A DNA stretch of 39,964 nucleotides from Conidiobolus incongruus B7586 (lineage: Eukaryota), in NCBI GenBank assembly GCA_000697335.1, contig JNEM01010372.1:1-39964 (forward strand). Direction: 5' to 3'. The notes under the pieces are model-generated. The model was not told the DNA's origin. It worked only from the letters and a program-made list of their open reading frames with translations, and did not search any database. This document shows, piece after piece, positions 2,375 through 39,964 of the stretch. Position 1 is the first letter of the stretch. Every line of letters begins with the position of its first letter. A program made the position numbers and the translations under genes.

Positions 2375-2419
2375 TATTAAATTAAATATTAAATATTAAA
2401 TATTAAATTATAAATTAAA
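2375..2419. repeat. Short tandem TATTAAA-like repeat just upstream of the tyrosinase start
   Basis: tattaaattaaatattaaatattaaatattaaattataaattaaa read directly. Confidence 0.6.
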
Positions 2420-4195: not shown

Positions 4196-5035
4196 ATTTT
4201 GATTTAATCTTTAATTTATATGTCTAAAATATTATAAATTTATAAATGTATTCAATATCCACTTTTTATTTCTTCTACCTTTTTAAATAATCTTAAATAA
4301 TTGATTTGACTTAATTATGGGAATATTTGATAAATTTCTTACCAAATTTAATTTAAAGTAATATTGATAAATCATTATAAATGACTTTGAATTGCTTAAT
4401 ATAATTATATAATTATAAATTTTACTAGTATTTAATAATATAGATCGAATTTCACAAAGCAATAATTTTAGAATTAAATTAATTTATTATTTTATCTAGT
4501 AACCCTTTTATAATTTATTCAATTAATTCCTTTGAAAAAATTAGCTGTCCTGAATAGACATTAAAAAACTAATTCATAAGAAATATTAATTATGGGATTG
4601 ATTCATTAAAAATTTCATCACTTTCCAAATATATCATTATTAACCCTCTGAGGACTCGAGCTATCTATTTAATCTTTGATCCCCAATAAATATTTTGCAA
4701 TTTTATTAATTAATCTTTAGTGTTAAATTTGTTAAAATATATTATTTACACTGATAAAATGTGAATTTATTACATTTTAAATTCCAATTTAGTTGATCCA
4801 ATCATAAATACTTAAATATATCCAATTAATATTCGCTTTTAATAAATTAGCGAATAAAATTAATGAATTATTGAGTAGAAACAATTCCAATTGACTTTTG
4901 CCCTAAAAGGGTTAATTTAGCCTACCTCCCCTAGATCAATATAAACTACATAGATAAAGAATATAAATATAAATACAGCTTTATCAATTTCTTTCAACTT
5001 TAAAAATAATATATACTTAATAATAGTAATAACAA

Positions 5036-6604
5036 ATGATAAAATTAACCATAAAACTAACCATTATAGCATGGATAATATTTTTATCTTTTATGATTAT
5101 TTTTATTTCAATTTGGAGAGGATCTATATCAACTCCAACCTTATCCAAACCGAGTCGTAGTCAACCTTTGGATATTAGGTTGAAATACGCTTGGGACAAC
5201 TTGCCAAAGGAAGATAGCTTGGATAACTACACATATTGTGAAGCTGGTGCTCCTTCAACAGACTCTTACAAACCTTTGGATGACAAAGATTACGACTTGG
5301 TGACGATTTATTTAATGACACGACATGGTGCTAGAACTCCAGAGAATTTTTTACCTCCTGGTTATGAGAAGGAAAGTTGGAAATGTCCCAAGGATTTGAA
5401 CACTATCACTCTGGATGGATTTGGCAAAGCTGATTTGGTTAAAGAGTACGAATTGGATTGTAAGCCTGATGATGAACCTTGTTACGCCCATCCCTTACGA
5501 TCATTGGGTTGGAGTGGCAACTGTACCACGGGACAGTTGACTGAGAAGGGAATGCGACAACTGTTCGATCTAGGTCACAATATGTATAAAATCTATTCTG
5601 AAAAGCTCGATTTCATTCCCAAGGATTGGGAAGATGCTAGAAAAGTGATACAAGTGCGTAGTACTGACTATTGGCGTACTTTCCAAAGCGCCCAAAGTTT
5701 AATTACAGGATACTTTAACCAATCGTTTACTAATATGTCATCCCCCATCAAAATTCATTCGGTGACGAGACAGTTGGAAACTTTGTTGATTAACGAATCA
5801 AGCTGTCCCAACATTAAATCTGGTGACAAAGATCAATTCCAAACCGAAGAATACCAACGCTTGCTAAGTGTTATTGATCCCATTGAAGAAACTTTCAGTA
5901 ATGTATTAGGCACTGCATTCCTAAGAGACAATCCCCTATTCCTAGAAAAATTAGTCGACGTCTTCCAATCCAGACAATGTCACAATAAATCCCCAGTTTG
6001 TTCGTCTGGAGGCAATTGCATCAAGCCAGACTGGGTCAATTTATCCATGGCCTATGCCAACTCCGAACTTCGTATCTTATTCCGTGACCTAAATCCGAAG
6101 TATCCCAACTTGGCAATTGTCAGGGCAGGTGGCTTCTTAATTGAATTAAAGCGCAATATTCTGTTACAAGTAGCTCACCTTCTCAACAACCACGACATCA
6201 TCGACACAACCCACCAGCATTTCAAAGACATGGAAGCATCTCTAATCAAGATTAAATGGTTTTACTACTCCGCTCACGATACTTCCATCAGTCCAGTATT
6301 AGGAGCTCTTAACGCCATTGATATGAGATGGCCACCATACCGCTCCAACATTATAGTTGAACTGTGGAAGCGGAAAGATGCCAAAGATTTCAGTAATTTC
6401 CAACTACACTTTCTTTATAATGGCTCACCCCTCAAAATGAAGTGGTGTCCCACTGGAAATTGCAATCTGCAAGAATTTCTAAACTATCTGGACAATGATA
6501 TGAAACTGGTATTGGGGTGGGAGAGGTATTTAAGTAATTTAAAACAATTGAAAATTGTTAATTTTGAAAGCTTGTGCTGGTCGCAACCTACTCAATGGCA
6601 ATAA
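5036..6604 (+). CDS. Histidine acid phosphatase (branch 2, ACP6/lysosomal acid phosphatase-like) with N-terminal membrane anchor
   Basis: RHGARTP catalytic motif, GQLT..G, RST..RT..SA, proton-donor AHDTSI, WPPYRSNI; hydrophobic N-terminus. Probable 45-nt in-frame intron at 6526-6570. Confidence 0.93.
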   Translation: MIKLTIKLTIIAWIIFLSFMIIFISIWRGSISTPTLSKPSRSQPLDIRLKYAWDNLPKEDSLDNYTYCEAGAPSTDSYKPLDDKDYDLVTIYLMTRHGARTPENFLPPGYEKESWKCPKDLNTITLDGFGKADLVKEYELDCKPDDEPCYAHPLRSLGWSGNCTTGQLTEKGMRQLFDLGHNMYKIYSEKLDFIPKDWEDARKVIQVRSTDYWRTFQSAQSLITGYFNQSFTNMSSPIKIHSVTRQLETLLINESSCPNIKSGDKDQFQTEEYQRLLSVIDPIEETFSNVLGTAFLRDNPLFLEKLVDVFQSRQCHNKSPVCSSGGNCIKPDWVNLSMAYANSELRILFRDLNPKYPNLAIVRAGGFLIELKRNILLQVAHLLNNHDIIDTTHQHFKDMEASLIKIKWFYYSAHDTSISPVLGALNAIDMRWPPYRSNIIVELWKRKDAKDFSNFQLHFLYNGSPLKMKWCPTGNCNLQEFLNYLDNDMKLVLGWERYLSNLKQLKIVNFESLCWSQPTQWQ

Positions 6605-14746: not shown

Positions 14747-16261
14747 TTAATACCTTAATTTGATTTTAACATGAAATTGTGTCTCCTTTGGAACCATTAA
14801 AAATTCTTTTCTAAGGAATAATTTGGCACCTACTGTAAGCTCAATATCAAATCGATGGGGTAAGTGAGCTAATAATAAAAACAATTCTAACCATGCCAAC
14901 TCACCACCAATACATGCTCGGGGTCTAGTGCTGAAAGGGTACAATTTGGACTTCAAAGAGTCACTTTCTGGTCCAAGCCATTTGTCGATATCAAATTGTC
15001 TAGAATTAGGAAAGTTTTCATCAGAATGATTTATTGCATATGTACTGTATAATATGATGGTCTAAATATTAAATCATTAAACTTTGTTAGATAAGAAATA
15101 TATATATACTTGCTCCTTCTGGAATAAAATGGCTATCTATAACTGTAGCTCCTTTAGGCACTTCTCGTGGAATAGGCCTGAAGGCCACTGAATGGAATCT
15201 CATAAACGCTAGAATGATAGTTTCCAATAGTGAAAGTTTATGACAATCATCCATAGTTGTAATGGCATTAGGATCAGGAAATTCTTTTATGATTTGAGTG
15301 ACAATATGCTGGTAAATTGGTCGGTTTTTCAAAATTTCATAAATAGTAAATATTAAAGTATTGGAAGTAGTGTCAACACCCGCAAGGAGAAAAGTAATCG
15401 ATCCGTCAATTATCTGGTCATCTCTCAAGCTTAAACCTGATTATGTATCCTGAGTGTCTATCATTGACTGAAGGATATCTAGATGATCACTTTTCGATTC
15501 TCTTCTTTTGTTTATAGTTTCGGTAAACAACCCACTGATAAAGTCATGCATTTCTCTAAATGATTTCAAAAATGGGAAAATAATAAGACCAATGAATATA
15601 GTCGCTTTGTGAAAAAATTTCAGATAATGTTTGAATTGATCTGGATTATTGTACATCCAAGAGATTGTCCAAACACTAATCTACTCACAACGGCTAAGGT
15701 ACTCGAATAAAACAATTCAGAGATATTGACTGTAACTTCCTCTTTGCCTGAATTGAACAAACTAGACTAATATCGAATTTAGTTGAGGGTATCTGTTTCT
15801 AGAATTGTAGGTTCCATAATTCGAATGAATTTGGAACTAATTGCTGTTGATATCATCGTTTTCTTTGTATATAATAATTCTAGTCTCATATAGAGAGAAT
15901 GGTAGGATTATTAAATTCAAAAATTTTATATTGCTTGGTTTTCTTATATTGATAGCCGTTTGGTAATTTATATGTGTTAGAATTACTCACAATAAACTTA
16001 TTTTTCGCAACTACAATCACTTTAAGATTACAATGCCAAAGAATATTACAAAATACTTCAAAAATATGTTTAAGTATATTTTTAAAAAAAATATCGAGGA
16101 TAGTTTGGACGTAATAATTTTGATATTGGCCCAGAATAATATGCACGATAAATATGGCTATGATAAAACCAAACACAATTGAAAACTATGGTAAAAACAA
16201 TAAACTCCATATAAGTGATGGATTTCCAAATTTGTTGCAAGTCATTGAACAACATATTCAA
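14747..16261 (-). pseudogene. Cytochrome P450 pseudogene, tandem paralogue of the 18091-19630 gene
   Basis: Collinear fragments: MLFNDLQQIWKSITYMEF...YYSGP, AGVDTTSNTL, heme loop FSTRPRACIG. Multiple stops and frameshifts; ExxR degraded to AFMR. Same 52-nt intron position (15062-15113) but with a GC donor. Confidence 0.9.
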
Positions 16262-18090
16262 AATAAAAAATTCTCAGTTTTATACCAAAATATATTTCTC
16301 GAAATATCTAAGCATTTTGTATTAATTTCAAATCATGCAATATACTATATATTACCTCACTGGTAATCGGTGGGGTCAAAAGTGTATTCATTTGTATTCG
16401 TACAGATTGTATTTAATTCATTATTTAATTGATTATCTTTAATATATTCAAAAAATTAACAAATTTGAATATTATTATAATTCTCTTATTATTTTAGCTT
16501 CATAAACTAAAATATTTGATTTAGGACTTATTCTAAATCTTTTTTAATTATTTTTTTAAATTATATAATTATATAACATACAATATTATAAGTTATATTA
16601 TTTTCAAAGAATATTATGATCAAAGTATTATGAGCTTTTGATATATTTTTAAATGATATTACGTATCATTTTTAAAGATTATAAAAGGTAAAATCAACAT
16701 TTTTAGTTCTGATATTAAATCATAATTTTAAGATTAATATTAATTTGTACTTATAATTTTGTAATATATAACTTAAAAATTAATAAACAATTTCATCTAG
16801 AAATATATATTTAGAGACCAAAAATTGTGAATAAAATATGATGACCAATATATATGATTCATTCCATTTTCAATACTTTTTATTCTCAAATCATTATTTG
16901 ATGCAAAATTTTTGATTTTATCAATTAGTTAACTGAAAATATTGTTTCATAATTTTATATAATTCAGTCCCAAAATTTACTGAATTACCAATTTTTTTAT
17001 TTCTGATAAAATAAAAAATAAATTAAAATTTTTAGTTCAATCAAATATTGATGTTAATAGTAAATTAAAATAAACCTAATTAATATATATTTGGTCAATA
17101 AATCCATTTGAAAATTATATAATAATACTTATAATAATAAGAATATTATATATTATGATTAAACTAAATTTTTGTTTTTTTGCTCAATATTTTATATACT
17201 AAATGGTTATAGATTATGTAAGGTGTAAATTCTTCAAAGTTGTATTTAATATTAATCTTAATTAGACATATTAATTTTGAATAAAATTTACAACTATTAT
17301 ATAAATATCAAAATTAAATAAAATTATTTTTCATCATTAAAATTTGTTTTTTCCCAATTTTTTTGAATTTGAATTTTAAAATACATGTATAAAAAATGTA
17401 AAAATAAATCAAAGAATCAATATAATAATTAGATAACCTAATCTTGTTATAAATTTATATACATATATAGGATGATATTATCAATAATGAGATGTGATGA
17501 TGTAATTCAAATAAAATATTAGAAGAATAGCTTGATTTAAAAAAAAATTGAAAATTGAATTAAATTCAATCAAAAATACTTCTGTTATATATATTAAAAT
17601 TATTATTATATAATCAAAAAAGAATAATATATGGTATATAATTGGATATTATTATGATATATTTATATTTGAATGGATCTATGAGATTCAGCTATTTCGA
17701 ATAATCATTAACCTTTTTCAAAGAATTTTATAATTTACATCTAGTTATAATCTGTATAACTTTTATTAATTCTATTAATGAAAAAAAATTTAAATACTAT
17801 ACATTAACCAAACTATCACATTAATTTTATTAAAAATTCATAATATTAAACATCTTAATGATCAAATATAAATTTTTTGTTAGCTTAAAAAACATTGATA
17901 ACAGATTGGGTACAATCATTTTCATGATTCACTATAAATCATTATACAATGTGATATTGGATGATAATTTATTCGATATTCGTGTTATAAAAAAAATAAT
18001 AAATGTTTAAAAATAATTTCAAATATATAACTAAATATTAAAAAGTAGCTGCTGACTATATATAACAAAAAATTACTTGTAACGCACTGG

Positions 18091-19630
18091 CTAAACTTTA
18101 AAGGATCTTCTTCGAATTTTAATATTCAAATTCTTCTCCCTAGGAGATAGTAAGAAACCATTCACGGGAGTTATCTTAGAATTATCTTCAAGTTCCATTT
18201 CAAATCTATGGAGTAAATGAGAGAGTAATAGGAACATCTCCATCCATGCCAACTCCCTTCCAATACATGACCTTGGCCCTGTACTGAATGCATACAGTTT
18301 TGATTTCAATGACTCTCTCTCTGGTTCAAGCCATCTTTCGATATTAAATTCTTTCGCATTAGGAAAATATTCGTCTGAATGGTTGACTGCGAATGCATTA
18401 AATGCTATTACGGTCTAAAGATTACATTATTAGTGATATAATAAAAAAAGTGTAAAATATAATTACTCCTTCAGGAATAAAGTGACCATCAATTGTGACT
18501 CCTCCTGGAGGAACCAAACGTGGAATGGGTCCAAATGCTACAGGATGAAATCTAAGAGATTCAAGGATAGCAGCTTCTAGTAATGGAAGTTTTTTACGGC
18601 AATCATCCACAGTGATTGTGGCATTAGGATCTGGGAACTCTTTCACTATCTGAGAAACAATACGTTCATAGAGTTCTCGGTTCTTCAAAATTTCATAAAT
18701 AGTAAAGATCAATGTATTGGAAGTAGTATCGATTCCTGCGAAGAGGAGAGTCATAGCTTCATCCACAATTTCGTCATCCCTCAACCTCAAGCCCGACTCT
18801 TCATCTTGTGTATCCATCATGGATTGAAGGATATCGGAATGGCTACAGTTTGACTCCCTTCTCTTTTTCATATTCTCAATAATTATTCCTTGAAAAAGTT
18901 GGGTGGGAAGATACCAACGTTTCAAAATTGGAATTAAGGGTAAAAGGCCAAGAACTAATTGAGCTCTGAAGATGAGCTTCATATAATATTTAAATTCATT
19001 TGGATTCTCTATACAATGAAGAGATTCTCCGAATACTAGTTGGCTAATGACATCCAGAGTACTTCGATAAAATAGCTCGTAAATATCTACGGTAATTTCA
19101 TTGGTTTCGTTATTAAAAAAACTGGACAAATATTTGATCAAGTTAAGAGTTCCAGTTTCGAGTATTAAAGGCTCCATATTTTGCATGGATTTCGAACTGA
19201 ATGCTGGTGATAACAATCTCTTTCTTTTTGCATGGTAATCTTTATCTCTCGATGAGAATATAGTGGGATTATTCAGGTCAAACAGCTTATACATCACACT
19301 CTTTTTATACTTATAGCCATTTAACAATTTAAATGCTTCTATATCGCTAACTAGTACACCATTTTTAGCAAAAACGAATACTTTACCATAATCCTCGTGC
19401 ATTTTATAAAAGTTATCAGCATGTCCTATTAACCTCAAATAATATCTATAAAAGTAAAAGAACAAGGGATTTTTAGGATGAGGTAGATGTGAGTGTGGTC
19501 CTGAATAATAAGCTGTATAAATTTGGCTATAATAAAACCATACAAAATTAAAAATTATAAAGAAGGTCACTAGCTCAATATAAGATATTGAATTCCAAAA
19601 TTGCTCTAAATCGTGTAACAAACTTCTCAT
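18091..19630 (-). CDS. Cytochrome P450 monooxygenase, 2 exons (19630-18467, 18414-18091), 495 aa
   Basis: N-terminal anchor, RKRLLSPAFS, I-helix AGIDTTS, ESLR (ExxR), IERW, heme FSTGPRSCIG; 52-nt GT-AG intron 18415-18466. Confidence 0.95.
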
Positions 19631-20370: not shown

Positions 20371-22217
20371 TCACCATTGAATCTGATAATATCCAGCAAT
20401 GCTTATTATATTAATTGTTAAAATAATAGATTTGGAGTTAAATATGAATTAACTATTTTACCAATTAAATAACAATAGCAAATCTATAATATTCAAGAAT
20501 TGGTATATATTTTTTTAATTAAAATCAATAATAGAGATAAAATTTAACCATATTAACAAAATTACTAAATCCAAATTATACTTTTAACATTGAAATTGTG
20601 ATAAAATCAAAATTTCGAAAAGATATACATATATATTCCTATTACATGCATTTTAAATTTTGTCAATTTCTTTATATTTTCTTGTAACTGTTATATTAAT
20701 TTGAATAAAATTTGTTTACTAACCGTATTATCAAAATTATTATAAAATTGAATATTAACAGCCATCAATAGAAATATGATAATTACATTTAATATATACT
20801 CAAAGTTAAATGATATATCTCATAAATATTTATTTAAAAATGATTTTGAATATTTTCAAGAGGTTGATTTTGATAATAATACAAAGTGTTAAATTGGAAT
20901 TTTTGAATGTATTTTTTATCATAATATTATTTTATATAACTAAGTCACTAAAGAATATTTTTGAGGTTTGATACTGTATCCAAAATTAAACACTACTTTT
21001 TTTAAAAATTTACCTTTATCAGACTATTAATAGTTATCTATTGCATATTTAATATATTATATTATTTGACTTAACCTATTATTCCAATTATTTTAAAATC
21101 AATAATATAAATTTGGTTCATTTGATTGATTAGAAATTAATTTTACTTTTACTCAATCTAGTTAATATAAATAATTTGATAAAGTTATAGTTTATATCAA
21201 TTTATTAGTAATAAAACTAAAAATTATAATTAAATAATATTCATAAATAAAATAAATATCATGTTGAAAATAATAATATATAATGTATATCGTAAATGAA
21301 AAAACTTGAATTTTTATATTGCGATTTCAAATAAATTAAATTTGACATTTTATATTTTTCACAAAAATTTTGAAAATTATTTGATATCTATATTATTTTG
21401 GAAAATAACATGGGTTAACATAAATAAATTAAAAGTATTCTATCAATAAATAAACTAGGTAATATGATTATCAATTTTATCACAAAAATTATAGAGTTTG
21501 TAATTGATTCATTAGCTTAAACAAATATTATTTCAATTTTGGTAGATAATAATAATTATTCAAGTGTATAATAACAGTGAATTAGAATAATAAATATGAA
21601 TTTAATAATAAAATTGGTACACTAGATAAACTGAATAATGTATCAGTATTCAAATAAATACTAAATTGAGTTTGTCGTTTAATTAATTGAGTATGATTAA
21701 AAAAATTATTTTTGAACTAAAAAAGCGAGTGTCAATAGATAATATAATATATGATATTTATAAAATAATAAGAATTAAAAGATTTTTGGAGTTTATTTTT
21801 AAGCATATTATATGAAGTCCTATTATTGAGTATATTTGAATATGTATTTTTGAAGGATAAACTTTAATAATTTGACTAAATTGAATGATGAAATCATATT
21901 CCATTTTATAAAAAAATAAATTTAATGATATAGAATTTAGAAATTGTGGGATATTATATTTTCCAATAACATTTAGTATTAACAAAGTATTAATCAATCC
22001 AACAAAAATAATTAATACACTGAGCATCGCGGGCCTCTTCTTCTCCATCCACCTTCCAATAGTTGGTGTAAGACACTTTTTTAATTTAACATCCATTAAT
22101 TATCCAATACTAACGAATTCAATTTTTTATATAATCGAAACAAAAAATCAAAAATGTCAACTTAAACTCTCAATTACAAAACTTGAATTTATTGCAATTA
22201 CAGTAATCTGAGTCACG

Positions 22218-22897
22218 ATGAAAGAACTTACCAAGTCCGAAACTTTGGTTATTCCCGAAGGTGTTGAAGTCACCATCAAGGCCCGTTTCATCACTGTTAC
22301 TGGTCCTCGTGGTACTTTGACTAAAGACCTCCGTCACATCAACTGTGAAGTCCAACGTGTTTCCAAGAACAAGATTAACGTTGTTGTCTACCACGGTTCC
22401 CGCAAGCACGTCGCTTGTATCCGTACCGCTGTTTCTCACATCAGAAACATGATCACCGGTGTTACCAAGGTAAATTCCAGTAGTTTACCAGTTTGGGGAT
22501 TCAAATTAATAATTTTAAAATAGGGTTTCTTATACAAGATGCGTTACGTATATGCTCACTTTCCCATCAACGTTATTGTTTCCGATGACGGTAAGAACGT
22601 CGAAGTCCGTAACTTCTTAGGTGAAAAGATCATCCGCCGTGTCGCTATGTTGGAAGGTGTCACTTGTGAAATCTCCACTGAACAAAAGGATGAAATCATC
22701 ATCAAGGGTAACAGCATCGAAAACGTCTCCCAATCCGCCGCTTCTATCCAACAATCCACCACTGTTAAGAAGAAGGATATTCGTAAATTCTTGGACGGTA
22801 TCTACGTTTCTGAAAAGGTAATTACTTTTTGCTATAATATTTTTAATATTGTATTTATTTATTATTTTTTTAGACCACTATTGTTCAAGATGAATAA
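22218..22897 (+). CDS. RPL9: 60S ribosomal protein L9 (uL6), 3 exons (22218-22469, 22524-22817, 22874-22897), 189 aa
   Basis: [57 protein letters not shown]; strong high-expression codon bias; introns 22470-22523 and 22818-22873. Confidence 0.97.
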
Positions 22898-24789
22898 ATG
22901 ACTCAATTATTAAACAGTGAAACTGTTAAAATAAAGCCTATATTGGTAATATAGTGTACTATATTAATTAGAAAATAACACACTTATTTATCGAGCCATT
23001 ATCCGCGATTCTATAACTTCGATTATATATGTGTGTCGATTGAACCCTCTTGTTTGGAGTATAATTTACTTTTTAATATATTCATATCATTATAGATTTT
23101 ATCTCATTTTTACTCGTTCTCAATGTCTCTTGGGCGTGTTTTTACTTATTTCATTTTCATTTTACGGATTATACTTATATCTTGGATTTTCGGGCCTCCT
23201 ATCTTTGTCCATACTATAATGTTTTCTCTGCCCATTTTCAATATCTTTGCCAGCATTTCTGTCTGTCAAATTGCAACACAACAATCTTACAAATCCACCT
23301 ACCTTGAGACATGCTTATTATGACTTTTCAATGTTTTCGACTATTAATATTTATATCATATCGCATTTTTTTAATTTTCTTTTGTATTTTGAATTTTTAT
23401 TCTTCAAATAATCATCCTTGTTTATTATTCTTTTAATAATTTTATCTAACACCATACAACTTTAGATTTTCCTGCATATCTTTCTTACTAATTCACATAC
23501 TTTATAACTCTTATTTCAAATTCAATATATCTAGCATACTTTTGTCTTCATTTGGCATTAAATTGTTATCGAATATTAAATTCTAATTTATCCATTATAT
23601 TTAATTAATTTTGATACTATAAATTTTCAATATTTTTACCATATTTTATAAATTAAGATTTTTTACAAAAATTTTTTGAAAATTTGTGGAAATTTCTTAA
23701 AGTCAATTTCATAAATAATATTTATTTATTATATTCACAAATCTACTATTTATTGAATTTGTGTTTAAAAATATTTAGTTTACTTAAATATATTATAATA
23801 AGTTTAGAAAAATAAAATTAATAAGTTTAATTTTATAATTTTTAAAATATCATAGGTTTGACTTTATATTATAAAATTTTTGAATTATTTTATTAATAAA
23901 TTTTACTATATATAATATTAAAAAATGCATAGTATTCATTTGATTTAAATACCATTGGTCTTTTATTATTTAATTTTAGAGTATGTGGTAATTCTAAGTC
24001 GTAAAATAGATTGTTTTTTGATTGATTGATTTATTTATTTTGAGAAAGTCGAATACTAAAAATATAAATATAATTTAGTAGCATTTTTATATCAATTTAA
24101 ATTTTAGTGCATAAATTTACAGAATATATTTAGATTACTACCAACATTATATTATTAATAAAACTATAAATATTGTTAATAGATTTATTAAACCAAGTTC
24201 CTCTAATTTAATTTTAAACTGTTAATATATTTATTTTTATATATGCATTTATATTTAAAAAATTCAAATCAAAAGTTAAAATAATTTATATAATTGTAAT
24301 AACAAATATTTAATTATTTTTTAATATTCCTAAAAATAATATAATAGTTCATTATTTTAAAAAATTCCTTGAAATATATTTTAATATTATTTTAATATAT
24401 CAAATTATTTATTTAATTAGCATTTTATCAAATCATTTAAATTTGCTAATTGATATATTTATAATTTTGATTTATATAAAATTTATCAAATAATATTTAA
24501 ATTTAAATATAATTGATGAGAAATAAAGCCATACTATATAAAATATCTTGATTAATACCAAATTGAATATAACTATTAGCCAAATTGATAATGATAAAAC
24601 ATATAATATTGAGTTAATTAAATATTCAAAATATATAAATAAATAAATAATTATTTCAATATTTTATTAATATAACTTATATTACAAAAATCTTTAATTA
24701 TTTTATTATAATTTAATATTATTAGTAATTTAAACTGAATATAAATTATTATATAAAAAACTTTAATATTAATTTAAATTGATTTAATT

Positions 24790-25186
24790 TGTAAGTGTGG
24801 TGGTAAATACCAATATAGTGCAGAGGAAGACTTAATATAAGAATAGCGTGACACGGAACGTGGTATTATAACGTGGCAGTAGCGTGCAGATGTAAACAAA
24901 GTTTAATTAAGTTTCGAACTGGGTTGAGTCACCGATATATTAAGATTTATATTGGGTAGTGTCAATATACTGTAATATTGACAAGATGTAGTCTCAATCT
25001 TAGAAATAGTGAAAAGGTAAGGAATAGTAAGAATTGAGAGGAAAAAAAAGAACCTGGTTTATTAGATAATTCAATGCTATTTATATAATTAATTTAGCTA
25101 TAAAAGTATAAATTAATTATATAATTTATAGTTAATTGAATTATATAAAAGTATATATAAGAATTTAGAGAACTAGTCTCTTAACA
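24790..25186 (-). mobile_element. Solo LTR (397 bp) of an LTR retrotransposon
   Basis: TG...CA ends with near-inverted termini (tgtaag / cttaaca); exact 5-bp target-site duplication TAATT at 24785-24789 and 25187-25191; minus-strand TATAAATAG followed by AATAAA and a pyrimidine-rich tract. Confidence 0.8.
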
Positions 25187-25379
25187 TAATTATAAAATTT
25201 ATTATTTTATTATTTATTATTATTTAATTTAATTAATATATTAATTAAAAAAATTATTATTTATATTAATTTATATATATATGAGAAAGATATTATAGTA
25301 TATTACTATAAATTGAATCAACTAAATAATTACAATTTTATAATATTTTCTTAATTATTTCATGATTAAATTTATAATA

Positions 25380-26689
25380 TTACTTTGTATTTTTAATAAT
25401 AGGAATTTTTTACAATTAAAAATAAATAAATATTTAAATATATGATATATAAAAATAAATATATAATATAAATTTAATAGTTTCTTTTATTATTAATAAC
25501 TTTTTGCCATACTTTTAGCAAACTTCTATCACCTAAAAAACAGTTTTTTTTATTAAAGACTAAAATTTGATGTTTCACAAACCAATTAAATTTCCCTGCA
25601 GAAATTTTCTTTCCTGCAAGCTGGTTTTTTAATTACCCAAAGCAATTATAATCACATAGGTTATAATCAAAGGAATATACTGGATGTGGTAGTTCTTTCC
25701 AGTTTTTTTTAATTAGAAAGTTTTTTACATCTTTAGATTTATGTATTTTGCAATTATCATGTAAAATAATAGGTTTTCTCAAATTATATTGAGAACACCA
25801 ATTAGAAATACTTTTATTTAAAAAAGCAATATATAGTTTACTATTAATTGATTTCCCTTCAGGAACTAAATAAGAATAGCATATACCATTATAATTTATT
25901 ACAATAATTAACATTTGCTTATTAACAAAATACTTATTTAAAGGGATTTATAGAGGGGGTTGATTTAGCTTAATCCAGCATCTTGATTTGTGTTTTGGTA
26001 AAGGATTATACATAGGGATCTAAGATTCATCAATTGTAATTATTTGCTGTAAAAGTCTAGGCTTCTGGTAATATTTCAATAAGTTTTGTTTAGCAATAGC
26101 TACTCTAGCTTTTTTTTGAGCTTTAGTTAAATTATAAGGTACCTATTTTACATTTTTATTTATTAATTTTAGTTTAAACTTTAAAATATATAAAATACTT
26201 GTAAAACTAATATTAAAGTGCTTAGATAATTCTCTAGCTGAAATAAAAAGGTGCTTTTCAATATATTTTTTCACTCTATTTACAATTGAAAGAGTGACAG
26301 TTAAAGTTAGTCTTCTAGATTTTAACAGGTTTTGAATAGTTTCTCTCCTAGCTTTAAAGTAATTTACCCAGTGATAAATTGTTGATTTAGATAATGCTTC
26401 ATTACTAAAAGCTGCTTGTAAATTTTGAATAATTTTAAAGGGTTTATGGTTAAGTTTTACTAATACCAAAATAAAAGACTTTTGATGATTACTATTTGGT
26501 TTAAGCATGATTAAATTAAACAACCAATTTTAAAAAGTTAATTTTTTAATCAAAAAAACTAATATATATATATATATTAAAAATATATAATTTCCTATTA
26601 ACTATATATATATTTATTTATTTCAAACTAATAATATGTTTGAAAAATCAGAAATTAAAAAATTTCCCATTATTTCAAATTCAAGGTAA
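25380..26689 (-). mobile_element. Full-length mariner-type (DD34D) DNA transposon, copy 1, 1310 bp, inactivated
   Basis: TA on both flanks. Imperfect ~30-bp TIRs: left ttactttgtatttttaataataggaattttt, right (reverse complement) ttaccttgaatttgaaataatgggaaatttt. Internal transposase. Confidence 0.92.
25474..26508 (-). pseudogene. Mariner transposase pseudogene: 345-codon frame, 4 nonsense codons, no frameshift
   Basis: HTH N-terminus, *VPYNL (cf. WVPHEL), ITIDES*, LHDN-x-YSFDYNLCDY with D34D spacing, C-terminal WQKVINNKRNY. Stops at 26143, 26020, 25948 and 25633 are TAG/TAA. Confidence 0.92.
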
Positions 26690-27504
26690 TATATAATATT
26701 AATTATATATTTATTATAAAATTTATATATAAAAATATTGGTATTATAATAAAATTATTTTAAAATGTTGTAATACTATTTAATTATTATTATTATATAT
26801 TTGTAAATAATTAAATAATATAAATTTTCTATCTATACTAATTACAAAAATTAATTTAAATTTTTCAAACTAGAGTTTTGATATTTGATATATTATTATT
26901 TTATAATTTAAATAATAGGAATTTTTTATGACTAAAAAAATAAATATTTTAATAAATAAAATATAAAATTAATAATTTCTTTTATTTCTAATAACTTTTT
27001 GCTATATTTTTAATAAAGTTTTAATATTTAAAAAATAATTCTTTTTATTAAAGACTAAAATTTAATAATTCACAAACTAATTAAATTTTCCTATAGTAAT
27101 TTTTTTTCTTATAAGTTGGTTTTTTTTAATTATCTAAAATAACTATAATTACATAAATTATAGTCTAAAGAATATATTAGATATAGTAGTTTTTTCTAGT
27201 TATTTTTAATTAGAAAGTTTTTTATAACTTTAACTTTATATATTATATATTTATCATATAAAATAATAAGTTTTCTTAAATTATATTAAAAATACTAATT
27301 AAAAATAATTTTATTTAAAAAAATATAAAGTTTATTATTAATTAATTTATTATTAAAAATTGAATAAAAATAACATATATTATTATAATTTATTACAACA
27401 ATTAATATTCATTTATTAATATATTATTTATTTAAAATAATTTATAAAAAAGGTTGATTTAACTTAATTTAATATTTTGATTTATATATTAATAAAAGAT
27501 TATA

Positions 27505-29077
27505 CACTAACCTGCAAAAGTGAGTCATAAAATCAAAAATATATATATTTTAATTAATAACTAAAACAATTGTATATATTAGATTATTTGAAATTATAAT
27601 ATATAATTAAGGTATATTATTTAATAATAGATAAATATATTTAGATATATTTAGTAAACTATTAGCAAAAATATTAACCTTTAATATTTAACCAAGGTAA
27701 GTTATAAATTTACAGGTTTTTGAGATAAAAGGATATATTTAACAATATATAACTATATCTTTTTTCTCTCTTTGCTATTATTTTATATAATATTTTACAG
27801 ATATACTAAATTTTTTTTATTAGTATCATTATACCTAAATCCCTCTCTAAAAAAATCTACTTGTGTATTAATCAACTTTATAAAAAAAGTAAATCAACTT
27901 GTGATATTGCTAGAATTACTAGTGTTAGCTAGTTTACTATAGTTAAGGTTGTTAAGAATAGCAATAAAAAAACATTTAAACTTAAACTTAAGTGTGTTAA
28001 GATTATAGATGAATATGATGAAAAGTATATCTGTAGGTTGGTTAATACAAGCAAGTATAGTATTACTGTAGAAATACAACAAGAACTACAAGACTATACA
28101 GGAATATTAGTTAGCACTGATACTATTATATGTGCTTTACATTAACATAGATACCACTTACACTTTAAGAAAAAACACCCCCAACTAAAGAAATCCTACT
28201 ATAAAACTAGGTGGGAGTTTAAATGTCACCACTAATGTTAAACTAAAACTAATTAGAGTAAGGTTATTTAATCTGATAAAACAAAAATATACTTTAATAG
28301 ATTTAATAGAAAAGCTAGATACTTTAAAAAAGATACAGAATTACTTTGTGACTATTATGTTAATTTTACCCAAAAGTATAATGGTAGGTTAATTATTGTT
28401 TGGGGATGTATGTTGTCTTTAGGTATAAGGTATCTTTGTAAAGTTAATAGGGGAATTAATGTTGAGATGTATTAAAGTATTCTGAACAATAAATTGAAAA
28501 AAACCATTAAATAGTATAGGTTAAATAAATCTAATGTTATTTTCCAGTAAGATAATGTTTTTTGTTATACTATAGCTTCTACTACCAAATAGCTTAAAAA
28601 TAACAAGATAACAGTTATGAAGTAGCTTCTTTAATCTCCTAACTTTAATCTAATTAAACACCTTTGGGATTAGTTAAAAAAAGTTATTAAAGTTTTCCCC
28701 TTAACAAAAAATTTAAATCAGCTTTAAAAATATATTCAAGAAATATAGAACAAGATTAACCCTTCCTAGTGTAAGAAGTTAGTTGATTCTATACCCCACA
28801 AACTTAAAGAAGTTAGAAAAGCTAAAGGTAGATACACTAGGTTTTAATTTTTTTTTATCATCAAAAACCCACAAATTTATAACTCACCTTAGGTAAAATT
28901 TAAAGGTTTATATTTTAACCAATTAATAGCTAAATATCATCATTTAATGATATATATAACTAATAAATATAATAGATTTTAATTATTTAATTTAGGTTTA
29001 TTTTATTAAATAATAATTAAGTTATTAGTAAAAATATAGGTGTTTTTGGTTTTATAACTTACTTTTATAGGTTAGTG
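27505..29077 (+). mobile_element. Tc1-family (DD34E) transposon, 1573 bp, ~225-bp IR-DR-type terminal repeats, nested in mariner copy 2
   Basis: TA on both sides. Left end cactaacctgcaaaagtgagtcataaaatcaaaaa; right end (reverse complement) cactaacctataaaagtaagttataaaaccaaaaa. A second similar block lies near 27670-27730 and 28855-28915. Confidence 0.93.
27831..28847 (+). pseudogene. Tc1 transposase pseudogene: 339-codon frame, start ATG>ATA, 16 internal TAA/TAG stops, no frameshift
   Basis: KVI*SDKTKI (cf. VIWSDETKI), IIVWGCM, FQ*DN, *LL*SPNFNLIKHLW (cf. WPPQSPDLNPIEHLW; 34 residues from D to the E position), LVDSIP...KAKGRYTRF*. Confidence 0.93.
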
Positions 29078-30206
29078 TATAAAAAATTTAAGATTTATTA
29101 ATTATAATAATTTATTATAAACACTTTAGTTTCTAACTATAACTTAATAAATTCTATTAAAAAATAACTACTCTAACTTTTTTTAAGCTTTAATTAAATT
29201 ATAAAGTATTTTTTTTATATTTTTATAAATTAATTTTAATTTAAACTTTAAAATATATAAAATACTTATGTAACTAATATTAAAATATCTTGATAATTCT
29301 ATAATTAAAATAAAAAGATATTTTTAATATATTTTTTTAAATTATTATTAATTAAAAAAGAAAAAATTAAAATTAGTTTTTTAAATATTAATAGGTTTTA
29401 AATAATTTCTCTCTTAACTTTAAAATAATTTATCTAATAATAAATTATTGATTTAAATAATATTTTATTATTAAAATCTGTTTATAAATTTTAAATAATT
29501 TTATAGGGTTTATGGTTTAGGTTTATTATTATTAAAATAAAAAACTTTTAATAATTATTATTCAAATATAATTAAATTAAATAACCAATTTTAAAAAATT
29601 ATTTTTTAATCAAAAAAATTATTATATATAAAATTTAAAACTATTTATATTTTTATTTGTTTTGTATATACTTTTTATTTAAAACTAATAATAAGTTTGA
29701 AAAATCAAAAATTGAAAAATTTCTGATTTCTTTAATTCTATGGTAATAACTTTAAAATAATATTTTAGATAATATATGAATATAGTGAATATAATTTTAA
29801 TTTATTGGAGATAATTTGTAAATTAATAGAATAAAATGAAATTGAGTAAATATAATGAATTAAATGTAAATTAAAAATATTAATAGAATCATTCAAAAAC
29901 AGTGTAAATCTTGATATCTATAATATAAAGACATACATATCAATTGTAAAAAAATACGTCAAATTTTGAGTTAATTTTGTTCTAAAAACAAAATTACAAA
30001 GCATATTTATTACATACTTAAATGATATTCAAAAGAATCTTGATCATTGTTATAACATAGCTTGTTTGGTTAATATTAAATATAATTTATTATTCAAATA
30101 TATCTTTATTAATTAATTTTATAAAAATAATTAAACTTAACTAAAAAATTGTATATATTTGTCAGTATACTCTATATTATATTATATTCAACCATGTTTG
30201 ATTTAT

Positions 30207-30629
30207 TTAAAATGTAAAAATTGATAACATTAAAATTAAAACTAAAATATGTAAATTGGTTAATACTTTAACTGTCATATTGGTGTTTGAAGTGTTTTTA
30301 GTTGATGGAGCAGATGTATTTTTGGGACCATCTCTACACCAAAACAAAACTTGATTGTCTGAAATTCCACAATTTGCTCTTGTGTCATTATTGAAAGTTT
30401 GATTGTATGTATTGGACCATGTCTTATACTCGTCGGTAGTGTTAAAGTTACAAGCTATATGAAAACCGCATTCAAATATTTCGCCAGTAGTTTCACAAGA
30501 TTTTTGGAAATTGAAAATTCGATCTATATCAGAATGTATATCTGATACTACAACACAACCATGGGGACTAATATGGTAATCATATATTGTGAATGGACCT
30601 TTTTGGTGAGGATTCGTAGAGTTACTCAT
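30207..30629 (-). CDS. Small Cys-rich protein with S/T/N-rich spacer and hydrophobic C-terminal tail (GPI-signal-like); true N-terminus uncertain
   Basis: 140-aa ORF with 6 Cys and coding-like composition; tail VLTNLHILVLILMLSIFTF. An upstream in-frame ATG at 30686 is blocked by TAG at 30633-30635. Confidence 0.6.
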   Translation of the reverse strand: MSNSTNPHQKGPFTIYDYHISPHGCVVVSDIHSDIDRIFNFQKSCETTGEIFECGFHIACNFNTTDEYKTWSNTYNQTFNNDTRANCGISDNQVLFWCRDGPKNTSAPSTKNTSNTNMTVKVLTNLHILVLILMLSIFTF

Positions 30630-33147
30630 ATTCTATATATTAATAAAATTAACTATATCAATTAAAATCCAGATCCATAAATTCATAATGCCTCATTTAT
30701 ATAGTTTTTTTTTGAATTCTCAGACTCTAGATATAACATTTTGTCCAAATATATTGAGAAAATTCAACAGATTGTGTTCAATAAAAGCATGTTATCAGGT
30801 TTTACAATGGTAGATGAAAGGATTTTAAATGGACATCGATTAATAAGGTACTATAACTTTTCATATTAGTAATGTAAGTAATTTGAATAATAACACAATA
30901 GCTTTGTAAATTTCACTTAAAGATAATATCCAATAAACCGTATTAAATAATCATCATTACAGTAAATTTAGTAAATTTAATGATTTTAGATAGTTCTCTT
31001 TGGAATTGGAAATACTAAAAGCAAACTAATCAATAAGTATATTTAGCAATAAACATTTCTAATACAAAGGAATTGAACGGATATTATATAGTTATTTTTA
31101 AAATCAAATTAGATGTATAACTTGATAATTTGATGTAAAAAACATTGTTATTTTTTATATTGACCATTTTAAAATTGTAGTATATCAAAAGGTCATTGGG
31201 TGCAATTGCTATAAAAAATATCAAAAATTAATATAATATAATAAATTATTCAGTGTTAAACTTAAAAATATATGTATATATTTTTATTTTTTAATATTTG
31301 AATTTTTTCTAATATTTTACTACCATATATCATTTATCTTATTTTTAACTCTAATAGTTTTCAGTTCAATTTTTTAAGATTTGTTAAAGCATTTATTCAT
31401 ATTAATTTAACTATGATTACCCCATAATTCTAAAATCAGATAAAATAGATATTTTTACATATTTAATATAAAAATTAAATAATTTTTTTTCGATTAATAT
31501 GATAAAACAATAAAGGAGTTGATTAATTTTTAGTTATAACCAATGTGATATTTGCTATTCGTATCTTAAATTTCATATCATACTATTAATAATGAATACA
31601 CTTAATCAAAATTAATAACACTTTATAGATGTTAAAATACAATTATCCCAATATAAACTATTTAAATTATGGATCTAATAAATTCATTTATAATATTTCG
31701 ATATATTATAATTTTAAGTATACACATGATGCGAATATCAACATTAGTTCTAAAAATACTTTAAATATAAACCTTAAACTTAACCAATATAGTATAGGCA
31801 ATTAGATAACAAGAAATTAATGATTTGTAAATGAAATCATAGAACGATATCTAATATTAAAAGAACCTCTAATAATCATACTACTTTTCTATGTTATAAA
31901 TAATGATGTTTCAATATTAAATATTTTTGAATATATGCTATCATATGCCATTATTGTAAATTTAATCAAAAATTATAATTTATATGCTATCCAAATACTT
32001 AATATTAATTCCCAAAACTAATCACTAATTTTTCTCTATTCACTATAAAAAAAGAGTTAATATATCAATAAATTTAACCAATAAAATATCAGTATTATCA
32101 CAACATCTAGCATAACTGTTAAATCCCAAATTCCCACTCAAAATTATTCTCAATTAATCATAAGAGATGAGAATTGATTTTTTTTTGAATTGGGTAAATT
32201 TGGTAACTTAAAACTCTTCAAAGTTTCAGATAATTTATGGCGAATATGTGTCCTATTGGTTATTATTGTTGGTACTTGAAATTTTTGATAATTATAATAT
32301 ATTTTTATTATAATTGTTTTGCTTATCATTAAGTTGTTTGGGTTATTGGAATGGCATTGATTCATTATTCAAGTGAATACAATATAGTACAATATTAGTA
32401 ATTTAATTGATAAAAGTATATTCAGAATATGAATTATGATGTGGAGTCTAGTGTTTATACCAAGATAATTTGTTCAATTAAAAAAGTATTACATGCTCTA
32501 TATGATCGGCAAAATATATTAGATTCATTTGGGAATATAATAATAAGGAAAAGTTTTTATACTTTGGTTAAAAAATTGATCAATTCACTTTTTGGAAATA
32601 TAAGGAATATTTAGATGAATTGATGAATTACCAACAACAAACAAAATATTAAACATAAAAATTCAATAATAGGTAAAGTAATTAATTTAAAAAAATATAT
32701 CAAAGAGCTTCAATTAACCCAAAATAAAATAACAAAATTCAATAAAAGAAAAAATCTAAAATATAAAAGTATGAATTTTGAAACAGCTAATTTAAATCAA
32801 AATTTCACATTCAAAAAAATATTTTAAAAAACGGTAATTTTTTAATTTTTTTTATTCTAATAAATGGAAGATTTTTTTAACTGTTTGAAATTGTTAATAA
32901 TCAATAATTAATCTCTTATCTCTTAATTAAGTTTTTCTCTCTCAAATTTATTTAATAACAACAAAAAAACAAAATAATAATCATAATAAGTGAATATTGA
33001 ATTAATATATCATTGCTTAATAATTTATTCAAATAATTTTTATAAATAATAAAATATCGTTTATATAATTAATTAATATCAATTTAATTCTAATTAAATA
33101 ATTAATTCAATAATTAAAATTAGTAAAATATTTCAAGTTGAAAAGAG

Positions 33148-35007: not shown

Positions 35008-35293
35008 CATATTACTCTATCAACGACGATAAATCCATTAATATAAATAATAATTATTTTATATATAACAATTATTTGAACCAAAAATTATGTTTTTGGA
35101 CGAATCTTAGTTGGTCATCAACAATAGTATTAAAAAATATCGGATATTTTAATTAAATATTTGTATTAAAATATTTAAAAAAATATTAATCTTTGTGAAT
35201 AAAATAATATTGAAATTATAATTTTAGTTTATTAAAGGGTTGTTGATTGAATTTAGATTTAAGATATAAAAAAAAGTTGAAAACTAAAAGAGT

Positions 35294-35377
35294 TGCTGAC
35301 AGTGAGGTTCGAACTCACGCCCCGTTACCGGGAGGGGATCTTAAGTCACCCGCCTTGGACCACTCGGCCATATCAGC
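35294..35377 (-). tRNA. tRNA-Leu, anticodon TAA, 84 nt, intronless
   Basis: GCTGATA/TGTCAGC acceptor stem plus A73; D-arm TGGCCGAGTGGTCCAAGGC; loop CTTAAGA; long variable arm CCCG-GTAA-CGGG; T-arm GTGAG-TTCGAAC-CTCAC; downstream T-runs consistent with a Pol III terminator. Confidence 0.96.
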
Positions 35378-35719
35378 ATATATAAGTTGATATAAAATTA
35401 TTAGTATTTTGGCAATTGGTTTAACAGTCCATTTATATAACATATTCATCATATTATCATACCCATTTAAATTATATCTTTTTTTCAACCTTCAATAAAA
35501 TTTCAAGTAATTTTGGTTATATTTTCTCAAAACTAATTTAAATATATATATGATTTCATACTATTCATTTTGAAAAATTTATTAAATATTTCATTATATA
35601 ACACTGCATTAACAAGACCTATATAATAAAACCTTGAAAAGTATTAAAATGATAAAAAAACAATCGGATAAAATACATTAAAACCTTAAAAATCTTTCAC
35701 AAAATATTCACTCACTTAC

Positions 35720-36140: not shown

Positions 36141-37532
36141 TTTTGATATTTAGTTAATAAACTGTAATAATACTAATAATATTGAATATAAACTAATTAT
36201 TATTTAGAAAATTTAAATTTCTCATTTTGAGGAATTAGCTAGTATTTATATTATTATTTCAATTATTTAAAAGGAGTTTGAGGTAATCATTACATCATTA
36301 CCAAAATGGTAAATTTCAATACAATTTCACCTTTTTAGTTTGGATTTTATTCTTAATTAATACCAGTTTTTAGATTTTTTAAAATGAATATTAATTTATA
36401 ACATTTAAAAGTATACTCTCAGAATTATATATATAAATATATATACCTTGTTAGAATATATACTTTTTTATACAATATTAATACTTATAATGTTTTCATT
36501 TCGATAATTTAGAGCAACCAAATATTTGATGTAGATCTCAATTGCCATTTAATATTTATCACTCTTTCAATCTATTAACTAATTTTGAAATAATTGAAAT
36601 CTTACTGGTTAATTACAAGTACATACAATTTAATTAAAAGATTTTAATATCTAACTAGTTATCAACAACGCCGCTTTGAAGATAATGCTTAAATATTTGT
36701 TTTCGAATTAATAAGAATGCTTTTTTATCAAATGTTCAAATTGGTTATTTTATAATGCACACGATTTTAATAATAAAATATAGATTCATGATGATGATTT
36801 TATAAATAATATTGTAAATTATATATATTTTGCAACAGTATGTATCGATACAAGGAAAGCAGTGTAAATTAATACATTTAAAATATTTGACAATATAAAT
36901 ATATTTCAATCTATATTGTTGGAATCTGATAGTGTTATTTTTCAATTTTCAACATATTGAAATTAATAATTGATGGGTAAACAATGTAAATACTCAATTG
37001 AATAATAATAATATTGTATGAAGTTATTAATTTTCAATTAATATGTATCAATTTTAATAAATGAATTTTCAAAAAAAATTGAATAGTTCAACTTTATAAC
37101 AAACTTCAAATATAAAAATATTCCATTTGATATTTTTTGATTTCAATCCATATTTGAATTACAGAAATATAAATTAAATTCATCAAAGTATATAATTCTT
37201 TCATAATAATAATAATATATTTAACAGTGTTATTAATTTTAATTCAAAATATTTCCAAAATTAATGGGTGATGATGATCTACTAAGCCATTAATCATAAC
37301 AACAAATCTTCCAAATTGACAACAAAAATTTTGAAATTTTGTTTATTAAATTTGAATTTTTAAAATTTACGAAGTTAATGGATATTGATAAATATTGGAT
37401 GGTTGAATATATATTATAATATGTTCTTTGGAAATAGTATCAATTTATTAATTTTTCATAAGTTAGTTGTTTAAAATTTTATTATTTTTTGCATTTTGAA
37501 ATATTTTTAATAATTTGTATTTATTAATTAAC

Positions 37533-38783
37533 ATGACTCAAATAATTAACACAATATTTTCTTTAATAATTCTAAATTATTTCTTAACATTTGAAGTATA
37601 TGCTCAATCCTCTAAAATGGTCGTAGCATACTTTGCACCTTGGGATGGTGGTGATGTTTCCACGGTACCATTTAACAAAATTACCAATATCGTATACAGT
37701 TTTGGCACTCTGACCAATTCGAAAGATCCCAGTAAAATCATGTATGATCCATTTTATGATGTGCCCAAAATGCGTCAGTTGGTGGAAGTTGGACACAGAA
37801 ATAATGTTAAAGTGTTGCTAGCAGTAGGTGGATGGACAGGGGGTAAATATTTCTCCACAATGGTGAGGTCTAAGGCGCTAAGGACGAAGTTTATAGACCA
37901 AGCTGTTACGTTGATGAAGGATCCCAAAGGTTCAAATTCCACATCGTTCGGCTTTGATGGCATCGATATTGACTGGGAATATCCTGGAGGCGGAGGTCTA
38001 GAGGGGAATGTATCCAATCCAAGTGATTCTGCTAATCTCTTAACATTCTTAAAAGAGTTCCGAGCTCGATTAACTTCGGAATTCCCCAAGAAGAAGAAAC
38101 TCATCACCGCAGCGGTTGCAACAACACCCTTCAAAGGGTCCAATGGTCAACCTTTGAGAAATGTTAGAGAGTATTTCAATTATTTAGATTATGCGAGCAT
38201 TATGGCTTACGACCTGATGGGCCCATGGTCTGCAACCACGGGTGTAAATGCTCCATTGGATTATGATCCGAGATCCAATACCCCATTGGGTTTCAATCAA
38301 GCAATCAATGCATGGCAATCCGCAGGCGCTCCCAAGGATAAACTGGTAGCAGGTACGCCAGGCTATGGCAGGTCTTTCACAGCACTATCTAACATGCTAA
38401 ATAACAAAAACAATATTTATGTTCCCAAATCTTCAACTGTACCCAAGGGAGATAGAACTGATACAAATGTTCCATGTCCACTATGTCCACCAAGCAACTC
38501 ATACTCAGGCATGTATGGCTATAAGTACTTGCGTCAAGACATCCTCAAATCCAACTATAAAACTCCCATTGCACCTTGGATCCGCACCTTTGACAGGGTC
38601 ACAAAAACGCCATGGCTCTTCAATCCACGTACCAAAATGTTTATAAGTTATGACGACCCAGATTCAATTCGGTACAAAGTCCAAAGCGCGAAGCAGAAAG
38701 GCATCGCCGGTGTCATGCTTTGGGATATTAACTATGATTATAATGCCGAAATTGTCAGTGTATTGAATACTATAAGATCTTAA
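37533..38783 (+). CDS. Secreted GH18 chitinase, 416 aa, intronless
   Basis: Signal peptide, KVLLAVGGW, catalytic FDGIDIDWEYPG (DxxDxDxE), IMAYD, FISYDD, GVMLW. First ATG at 37533. Confidence 0.96.
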   Translation: MTQIINTIFSLIILNYFLTFEVYAQSSKMVVAYFAPWDGGDVSTVPFNKITNIVYSFGTLTNSKDPSKIMYDPFYDVPKMRQLVEVGHRNNVKVLLAVGGWTGGKYFSTMVRSKALRTKFIDQAVTLMKDPKGSNSTSFGFDGIDIDWEYPGGGGLEGNVSNPSDSANLLTFLKEFRARLTSEFPKKKKLITAAVATTPFKGSNGQPLRNVREYFNYLDYASIMAYDLMGPWSATTGVNAPLDYDPRSNTPLGFNQAINAWQSAGAPKDKLVAGTPGYGRSFTALSNMLNNKNNIYVPKSSTVPKGDRTDTNVPCPLCPPSNSYSGMYGYKYLRQDILKSNYKTPIAPWIRTFDRVTKTPWLFNPRTKMFISYDDPDSIRYKVQSAKQKGIAGVMLWDINYDYNAEIVSVLNTIRS

Positions 38784-39373
38784 GATCATTTGGATAGAAT
38801 TGTTAATAAATCATATAAATAAATTTAATATAACAGAATTAATTATAATTAATAATAATAATAATAATCATAATAATGTTAAATTTTATATCTTAATATC
38901 ATATTGATCTATTATTAAGCTGATGCCAATTACTAAGAATTTAAGTGTTCATATTTATTTGATGATTACCTCAATTGAAATAAGATTCTAATTATATACT
39001 CTTAAATCATCAATATTTAAATTTTTATTTGTTAAATTATCTTTTTAGAGTATCTTGTTTTGTAACATTCTGAAGTCATAACTCAGTTTGTGCAAAAGAT
39101 ATTTTTAAAATTTTAGTATAAATCAATTTTATTCTTTTTCAATTTGAATATTGCACTATACTTAATAGATGTAAATATTACCCTAAGTTTCATAATTCAA
39201 AATATAAAAAATTAATATATATTAAAAAAGGCTAATTTGAGGTATAATTTTTAATTTATTTTATCAAAATATAATACATTGCATAGTTTAATATCAAGTA
39301 TAACTTTAACTAGTAATATATACTTGAAATTTTTCAATATTATATTTAAACTAATCAATTCAATATTTTAATA

Positions 39374-39964
39374 TTACTTCAGATTTTAAATAATGGCATT
39401 TTATTTAAATCAATTTTGAATTTAATTTCCAATATATAATTTAAAAAATAATTAAATAAATTATATTTAATACTCTATTTTATTATTATTAAATATTTGC
39501 TATATTTTTAACAAATTTTAACACTTAAAAAACTATATTTTTTATTAAACTAAAATTTGGTTTTTTATAACTCAATTTAAATTTTAATTAAATTTTTTTT
39601 AAAAAAATATAATCTTTAATTATCTAAAGCAATTATAATTAAATATATTATAAATTAGTGAGTATATACATTTTATTAATTTTTTATATTTATTTTTATT
39701 TAGAACATTTTTTTTATAGCTATAGATTTATATAATTTAAAATGATTATATATAATAATTAATAATTTGAAATTAAATATATTAATTAGAAATTAATTAA
39801 AAAATATAAAGCTTATAATAAATTAACTTATTTTTATATATTACATAAAATAATTATATGTTATTATAGTTTTTAATAATAATTCATATTGATTTAAAAA
39901 TAAAATAAATATTATATTGATTTTTTTTGATATAAATTATTTTATTTTAATATATTCTTTATTA
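39374..39964 (-). mobile_element. Third, more divergent and extremely AT-eroded mariner relic, truncated by the window end
   Basis: TA followed by TIR-like ttacttcagattttaaataatgg; collinear blocks tttgctatatttttaacaaa and aattatctaaagcaattataat match copy 1 (tttgccatacttttagcaaa, aattacccaaagcaattataat). Confidence 0.75.

Follow-up and report, generated by a model that had tools for sequence, protein, structure and literature searches.

In the window analysed here, the whole 39,964-bp stretch of Conidiobolus DNA, C>T changes were found on both strands of the transposons far above background; they are confined to the transposons, uneven between copies and follow the context order CpG > CpA > CpT > CpC. 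The best explanation, to which a probability of roughly 0.55 is given from sequence comparison, is that the host would methylate transposon cytosines in all contexts and that the marked cytosines would turn into T far above background. The evidence comes from one window and four transposon copies.

For the host, the following marker was compared with C. coronatus KXN68240.1:

7167–7973, minus strand: last exon of GMPPA (mannose-1-phosphate guanylyltransferase)

This exon was identical to the C. coronatus protein at 237 of 269 residues (88%) and to the listed ascomycetes at 44–48%. In a quick GMPPA tree, in which 42 of 120 matches were included, the window was placed with Neoconidiobolus (SH-aLRT 90) and outside the ascomycete clade (99). 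The two best matches of the chitinase in the window (52% and 48%) were both in C. coronatus clusters. Judged by these comparisons, the host is a Conidiobolus (Entomophthorales) other than the reference C. coronatus and outside Dikarya, in agreement with the earlier sequence-only reading of this DNA, in which the host appeared to lie outside Dikarya.

The most heavily stopped frame in the window belongs to a Tc1 element, whose features are as follows:

27505–29077, plus strand: Tc1-family DNA transposon, 1573 bp, TA on both sides, ends located, inserted into mariner copy B
27831–28847, plus strand: dead Tc1 transposase frame of the DD34E type, 339 codons, 16 stops, no frameshift
27505–27730, plus strand: left terminal inverted repeat of Tc1, about 225 bp, imperfect
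28853–29077, minus strand: right terminal inverted repeat of Tc1, about 225 bp, imperfect

The assignment to the Tc1 family is based on the DD34E spacing, the HTH_Tnp_Tc3_2 (E 9.8e-07) and DDE_3 (E 0.0058) domains, both below the curated Pfam cut-off, the TA flanks and the terminal inverted repeats; in the catalytic triad both Asp are kept and the Glu site, 34 residues on, is mutated to Lys. The TA target, the terminal inverted repeats, the HTH and DDE domains and the 34-residue spacing are shared with known Tc1/mariner transposons (Tc1 DD34E; mariner D,D34D), and the elements themselves are not unusual, their nearest intact relatives being 38–45% identical. In the left repeat, a motif near the outer end is found again near the inner end, and a degenerate pattern of the terminal repeats gave 0 matches in metagenome contigs. 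The two terminal repeats were also tried as a source for the substitution spectrum and rejected, since 25 transitions, 28 transversions and several gaps separate them and they were possibly imperfect from the start.

The sequence-only reading had described the Tc1 frame as 339 codons without a frameshift and with 16 internal stops, none of them TGA. This description was confirmed (8 TAA, 8 TAG and 0 TGA), and the frame, read through with X, aligned gap-free with the 338-residue intact homologue P0123. The stops had further been placed at Trp and Gln positions, which is true of those at Trp in both closest homologues (8), at Gln in both (2) and at Gln in one of them (3), and is not true of one stop at an Arg of both homologues, a CpG-type codon; for the stops at codons 281 and 313 no ancestral residue can be assigned from these two homologues. 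The missense changes named in that reading were found again: the start codon reads Ile, Glu is replaced by Lys in both SDE and PIE and Asp by Asn in SPD, and His>Tyr and Pro>Leu also occur. Among the Trp positions common to both first homologues, 8 of 10 are now stops and 0 have turned into another residue, indicating that C>T/G>A changes are not limited to CpG.

Relative to the two first homologues, the Tc1 frame differs at 79 of the 187 columns in which these agree, and 65 of the 79 changes are explicable by C>T/G>A alone. The reverse direction alone explains 4, and random permutation gave 18.0 ± 3.4, with at most 31 in 10,000 permutations. Against 107 intact homologues (the best 150 matches of a profile search filtered to 325–365 residues, plus the two first homologues), the changes explained by C>T/G>A only were 10/10 in columns at least 90% conserved, 18/20 at 80% and 23/30 at 70%. 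At residues common to the four closest homologues there are 58 changes, of which 51 are C>T/G>A-only and 7 need other substitutions. When intact homologues were left out in turn, 10–24 differences were found in 156–170 four-way-conserved columns, so the 7 other changes fall within the drift of intact homologues, and a small transversion load in Tc1 is neither shown nor excluded. The data are thus compatible with death of this frame "purely" by C>T/G>A, as the sequence-only reading had put it, and fall short of proof.

Among the obligate C/G sites of Tc1, 58 of 173 were changed (C 20/70, G 38/103). By context these were CpA 15/31, CpT 7/26, CpC 5/49, ambiguous CpA/G 17/29 and ambiguous CpC/T 8/29, and in Tc1 alone the difference between CpA and CpT does not reach significance (P = 0.11). 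At least six conserved Arg positions in the alignment point to ancestral CG codons, and the element contains 0 CpG against 19.5 expected; CpG is ranked first in the context order because of its total absence together with these Arg positions.

The Tc1 element lies inside a mariner, which the sequence-only reading had overlooked, and three copies of that mariner are present in the window:

24934–29956, no strand: CpG-free block spanning mariner A, mariner B and Tc1
25380–26689, minus strand: mariner copy A, about 1310 bp, ends approximate, lightly mutated
26508–25474, minus strand: mariner A transposase frame, D,D34D, 344 codons, 4 stops (2 TAG, 2 TAA), no frameshift
26896–27504, minus strand: mariner copy B, portion left of Tc1, heavily mutated, GC 9%, left end approximate
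29078–29746, minus strand: mariner copy B, portion right of Tc1, right end approximate
39317–39964, minus strand: mariner copy C, old and degraded, continuing past the window end

In the CpG-free block (5022 bp), 0 CpG were found against 36.5 expected from composition, and mariner A alone has 0 against 14.7. Elsewhere in the window the longest CpG gap, mariner C aside, is 1036 bp, and the observed/expected ratio of CpG for the whole window is 0.76. In this one window the block matches the transposons, while host genes and intergenic DNA retain CpG. As a separate observation, the region around RPL9 (21500–23500) has 1.05–1.28 of the expected CpG, the maximum of the window, and is the only place away from the transposons with a positive composite RIP index. 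An AT-rich palindrome of 70 bp (25080–25149) lies just left of mariner A.

Mariner A was compared with mariner B, which in the nested cluster (25380–29746) received the Tc1 insertion and is far more mutated than the adjoining copy A. Within the frame of A, 160 of 245 C/G sites are T/A in B. In addition, 14 reverse transitions, 46 transversions (34 A/T swaps and 12 others) and 6 indels were observed, so that the claim of death purely by transitions does not extend to the neighbouring mariners. C>T changes number 160 and C>A changes 8, about 20 to 1. C/G loss was similar at synonymous (41/60) and non-synonymous (119/185) sites, so these changes were not under selection. Along the full length of the element, the losses were 75/95 at CpA, 78/120 at CpT and 21/48 at CpC, they were spread over both strands (C>T 83, G>A 91), and no preference for the 5' base was seen (AC 57/89, CC 34/48, GC 33/46, TC 50/80; 62–72%). 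The excess of A/T swaps over other transversions between A (25474–26508) and B is mostly non-synonymous, and many such swaps were also found in the P450 pair described below; they possibly represent the background mutation spectrum of the genome.

In a three-way mariner alignment of 462 columns, in which columns with C/G lost in all three copies are invisible, private transversions numbered 7 in A, 10 in B and 69 in C. At the 95 columns bearing C/G, T/A was found 16 times in A, 63 times in B and 67 times in C, and the difference between A and B is significant (P = 4e-12). The C>T load is therefore uneven across copies of similar apparent age, since A and B are alike in private transversions.

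Ordinary decay in this genome is represented by a control in the same window:

14747–16282, minus strand: cytochrome P450 pseudogene, tandem duplicate of the gene at 18091–19627, not hypermutated

Its five clearly aligned stops replace Arg, Lys, Leu, Leu and Glu, include one TGA and all need transversions; four more stops, next to gaps in the alignment or at the end of the exon, were left uncounted. The DNA alignment with the intact copy contains seven frame-shifting gaps. In the pseudogene 22 CpG are kept compared with 29 in the intact gene, and the well-aligned Trp codons are intact (4/4), so that Trp codons were lost to stops at 8/10 in Tc1 versus 0/4 here (P = 0.015). Having died through transversions and frameshifts with CpG and Trp kept, the pseudogene indicates that ordinary decay in this genome is unlike transposon decay. 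The changed Trp, Gln, His and Met sites of Tc1 are CpA, so the transitions are not confined to ancestral CpG; the pseudogene differs in spectrum and the host is not an ascomycete. None of the three results named as refuting in the sequence-only reading was obtained, and there is thus support for a transposon-directed C>T process acting outside Dikarya.

The sensing of repeats as such, also suggested in the sequence-only reading, gains no support here, the tandem P450 duplicate having been spared. The pair is a weak test of homology sensing because it is a single old pair, now 67% identical, and the duplication may predate the mutational process. Tandem P450s make up 112 of 142 in C. coronatus (PMC6032100); the pair at 14747–16282 and 18091–19627 fits that tandem expansion, which also indicates that gene duplicates survive in C. 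coronatus. When metagenome contigs were searched with a host P450, 72 pattern matches were obtained, none of which was confirmed as a relative. Overall, the interpretation given in the sequence-only reading is partly supported.

Under the explanation preferred here, transposon copies would be recognised through silencing (heterochromatin or small RNA) rather than by duplication alone, and the silenced copies would gain cytosine methylation in all contexts from a putative DNMT1-superfamily enzyme with DIM-2-like non-CG activity. Methylated C would then turn into T on both strands during vegetative growth, with a strength varying by copy, and the final step may be passive methylcytosine deamination or an enzyme-accelerated one. 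Given the mutation rates of methyl-CpG, the 20:1 excess of C>T over C>A is compatible both with passive deamination of densely methylated DNA and with a step driven by an enzyme. Precedents are found in Zymoseptoria, in which mitotic C>T changes in transposons depend on Dim2 (PMC8016269), and in Phycomyces, whose transposons carry CG and CHH methylation (PMC11258239). The Dim2 mitotic mutator of Zymoseptoria tritici, which is methylation-linked and independent of sex, is the closest working model for the proposed mechanism and shares the transposon-restricted non-CG C>T changes. It differs, and here speaks against the preferred explanation, in that more than 98% of its C>T changes are at CpA and CpG is spared (PMC8016269, in part), whereas the Conidiobolus block has lost all its CpG and is mutated at CpT and CpC as well. 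Also against it is a kingdom-wide screen in which C. coronatus is given as 'no_rip' (PMC12543289, in the part available). Methylation-linked hypermutation nevertheless fits better than canonical RID-type RIP because of the context order and the spared gene duplicate.

A true analogue of RIP, in which pairing would detect duplicated DNA, either in the zygospore or at a different fusion stage, and a dedicated enzyme would mutate it in bursts, is rather doubtful. With the RIP of Neurospora crassa and other Pezizomycotina (RID, DIM-2) the block shares dense C>T/G>A changes in repeats with C:G to T:A dominant on both strands (51/58 in Tc1; 160 versus 46 transversions in mariner), Trp and Gln stops without frameshifts (16 stops in Tc1), CpA as the leading non-CpG context and a composite index above 0; of the 78 one-kb windows, 10 have such an index, and 9 of these 10 overlie the CpG-free block or touch it. 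Burst-like action would also agree with a load that does not follow a simple clock (7 private transversions in A and 10 in B; T/A at 16 and 63 of 95 columns), and with the C. coronatus repeats of at least 1 kb, of which 0 are at 95–100% identity and 555 at 80–95% in the available part of PMC12543289, although assembly collapse could explain these counts. The block differs from Pezizomycotina RIP in its host outside Dikarya, its heavily mutated CpT and CpC and its spared gene duplicate. Neurospora RIP prefers CpA (PMC8016269, in part), whereas here the loss of CpG is complete (0 of 36.5 expected) and about half of the Tc1 CpA sites survive, so that a CpA-led RIP signature is not supported. Mariner A and B are linked direct repeats and yet have very unequal loads, their transversion-to-transition ratios do not differ significantly (P = 0.11), and strand-specific tracts were not evident in coarse bins, compared without a formal test. 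RID/Masc1 homologues are reported, in the accessible text of PMC5751038, from Dikarya only, with a bacterial-like gene in Batrachochytrium.

The TpCpG/CpG hypermutation of Pucciniomycotina, with a Masc2-like DNMT1, is likewise a RID-independent transposon C>T process with CpG as the prime target, but it is confined to CpG/TpCpG (PMC3318451 and PMC4352252, both in part). In the Conidiobolus block, 1/3 of the obligate C/G sites of Tc1 have changed, many of them non-CpG (as at the 8 of 10 Trp codons that are now stops), and 5' T is not preferred. Since CpA is not preferred over CpG and the excess is not limited to CpG, the signature is neither canonical RIP nor of the basidiomycete type; the feature is real, and RIP-like in outcome.

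Ordinary decay of CpG methylcytosine combined with AT-biased neutral ageing of dead transposons is improbable and already largely refuted. An AT-rich genome (intergenic GC 18% in the window), CpG as the most depleted context, and the transversions and indels of the mariner copies would all agree with it, but the P450 pseudogene exemplifies ordinary ageing with a different spectrum. In addition, a back-translated intact Tc1 homologue was degraded in simulation under three assumed rate sets, with 40 replicates per setting. At about 16 stops, the AT-biased neutral and CpG-only models gave 37–40% of C>T-only changes versus 88% observed and 4–5 TGA versus 0 observed, and turned Trp into other residues more often than into stops. 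The all-context C>T model was the only one to match the stops, the GC content and the share of C>T-only changes (14 stops, 0.24 and 82%, compared with 16, 0.26 and 88% observed), a fit that shows consistency only, since the model was tuned on this window and its rates are assumed. The zero count of TGA is weak evidence by itself, having a probability of 0.13–0.18 under this fitting model.

Editing of the elements by an APOBEC/AID-like cytidine deaminase is very improbable. The trinucleotide TCA is at 0.47 of expectation in the Tc1 frame and at 1.52 in unique intergenic DNA, which would suit such an enzyme, but neither the 5'-base preference nor the single-strand bias of deaminases was found between mariner A and B, where all four 5' bases and both strands are affected. 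Cut-and-paste transposons are not known to pass through a single-stranded cDNA stage. Damage from elsewhere, either elements arriving already mutated from an ascomycete or a block produced by assembly or chemical damage, is hardly credible even though the region is known from the assembly alone, since Tc1 is nested with clean TA flanks at a site uninterrupted in mariner A, one mariner family is represented at three sites among the genes of the host, chemical damage would not stop at transposons, and total CpG loss is unlike ascomycete RIP.

For the Entomophthorales, RIP was tentatively proposed in 2024 from index values alone, with stated caveats (PMC11105155), the index being 24.2% in Zoophthora radicans and 2.4–5.7% in three relatives. 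According to the same paper, observations of RIP are limited to Dikarya, and the methyltransferase candidates found there are not to be taken for RID homologues. That signal concerns the same order and likewise places RIP outside Dikarya; it differs from the present one in consisting of dinucleotide indices and in covering neither C. coronatus nor Neoconidiobolus, and the available passages contain no substitution-level spectrum or pseudogene control. The 2025 kingdom-wide screen (PMC12543289, in part) regards ascomycetes as unique and gives C. coronatus as 'no_rip', with AT-rich words not enriched in its repeats; comparing such words between repeats and non-coding DNA would have little power at an intergenic GC of 18%. 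The two papers disagree on RIP-like defence outside Dikarya, and the window adds substitution-level evidence and an internal control. Nothing on RIP in Conidiobolus was found in the available parts of PMC13297926 and PMC12387763.

Subscription papers aside, no paper was found that describes this signature in Conidiobolus. Clutterbuck reportedly described in 2017 a CG-deficient/CG-type transposon hypermutation in basidiomycetes and a few lower fungi; Conidiobolus may be among them, in which case the present signature could be less novel. It is possible, and offered tentatively, that Entomophthorales have their own enzyme-driven, RID-independent, all-context burst hypermutator, a second origin of RIP or an ancestral survivor, present from Conidiobolus through to Zoophthora and overlooked in k-mer screens given the AT-rich background. 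Conidiobolus is a small-genome genus, and some of the largest transposon-filled genomes among fungi are those of its relatives. Should the signature hold genome-wide, mutagenic transposon defence would be older or more often invented than thought, could work without RID and could coexist with gene-family expansion.

Several other features were observed in the window. Long intron-free frames encode a tyrosinase with a Thr/Pro-rich tail (530–2395, minus strand), a histidine acid phosphatase (5033–6604, plus strand) and the GH18 chitinase (37500–38783, plus strand). An orphan frame of 141 residues with a hydrophobic C-terminus (30207–30632, minus strand) had no Pfam match, and its matches in an atlas search were all below 0.9. 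An imperfect 240-bp inverted repeat (103–342; 70%) lies in a stretch of 88% AT that contains no CpG as far as position 610, and is possibly a further decayed small element. A tRNA-Leu(TAA) gene is located at 35292–35378 on the minus strand.
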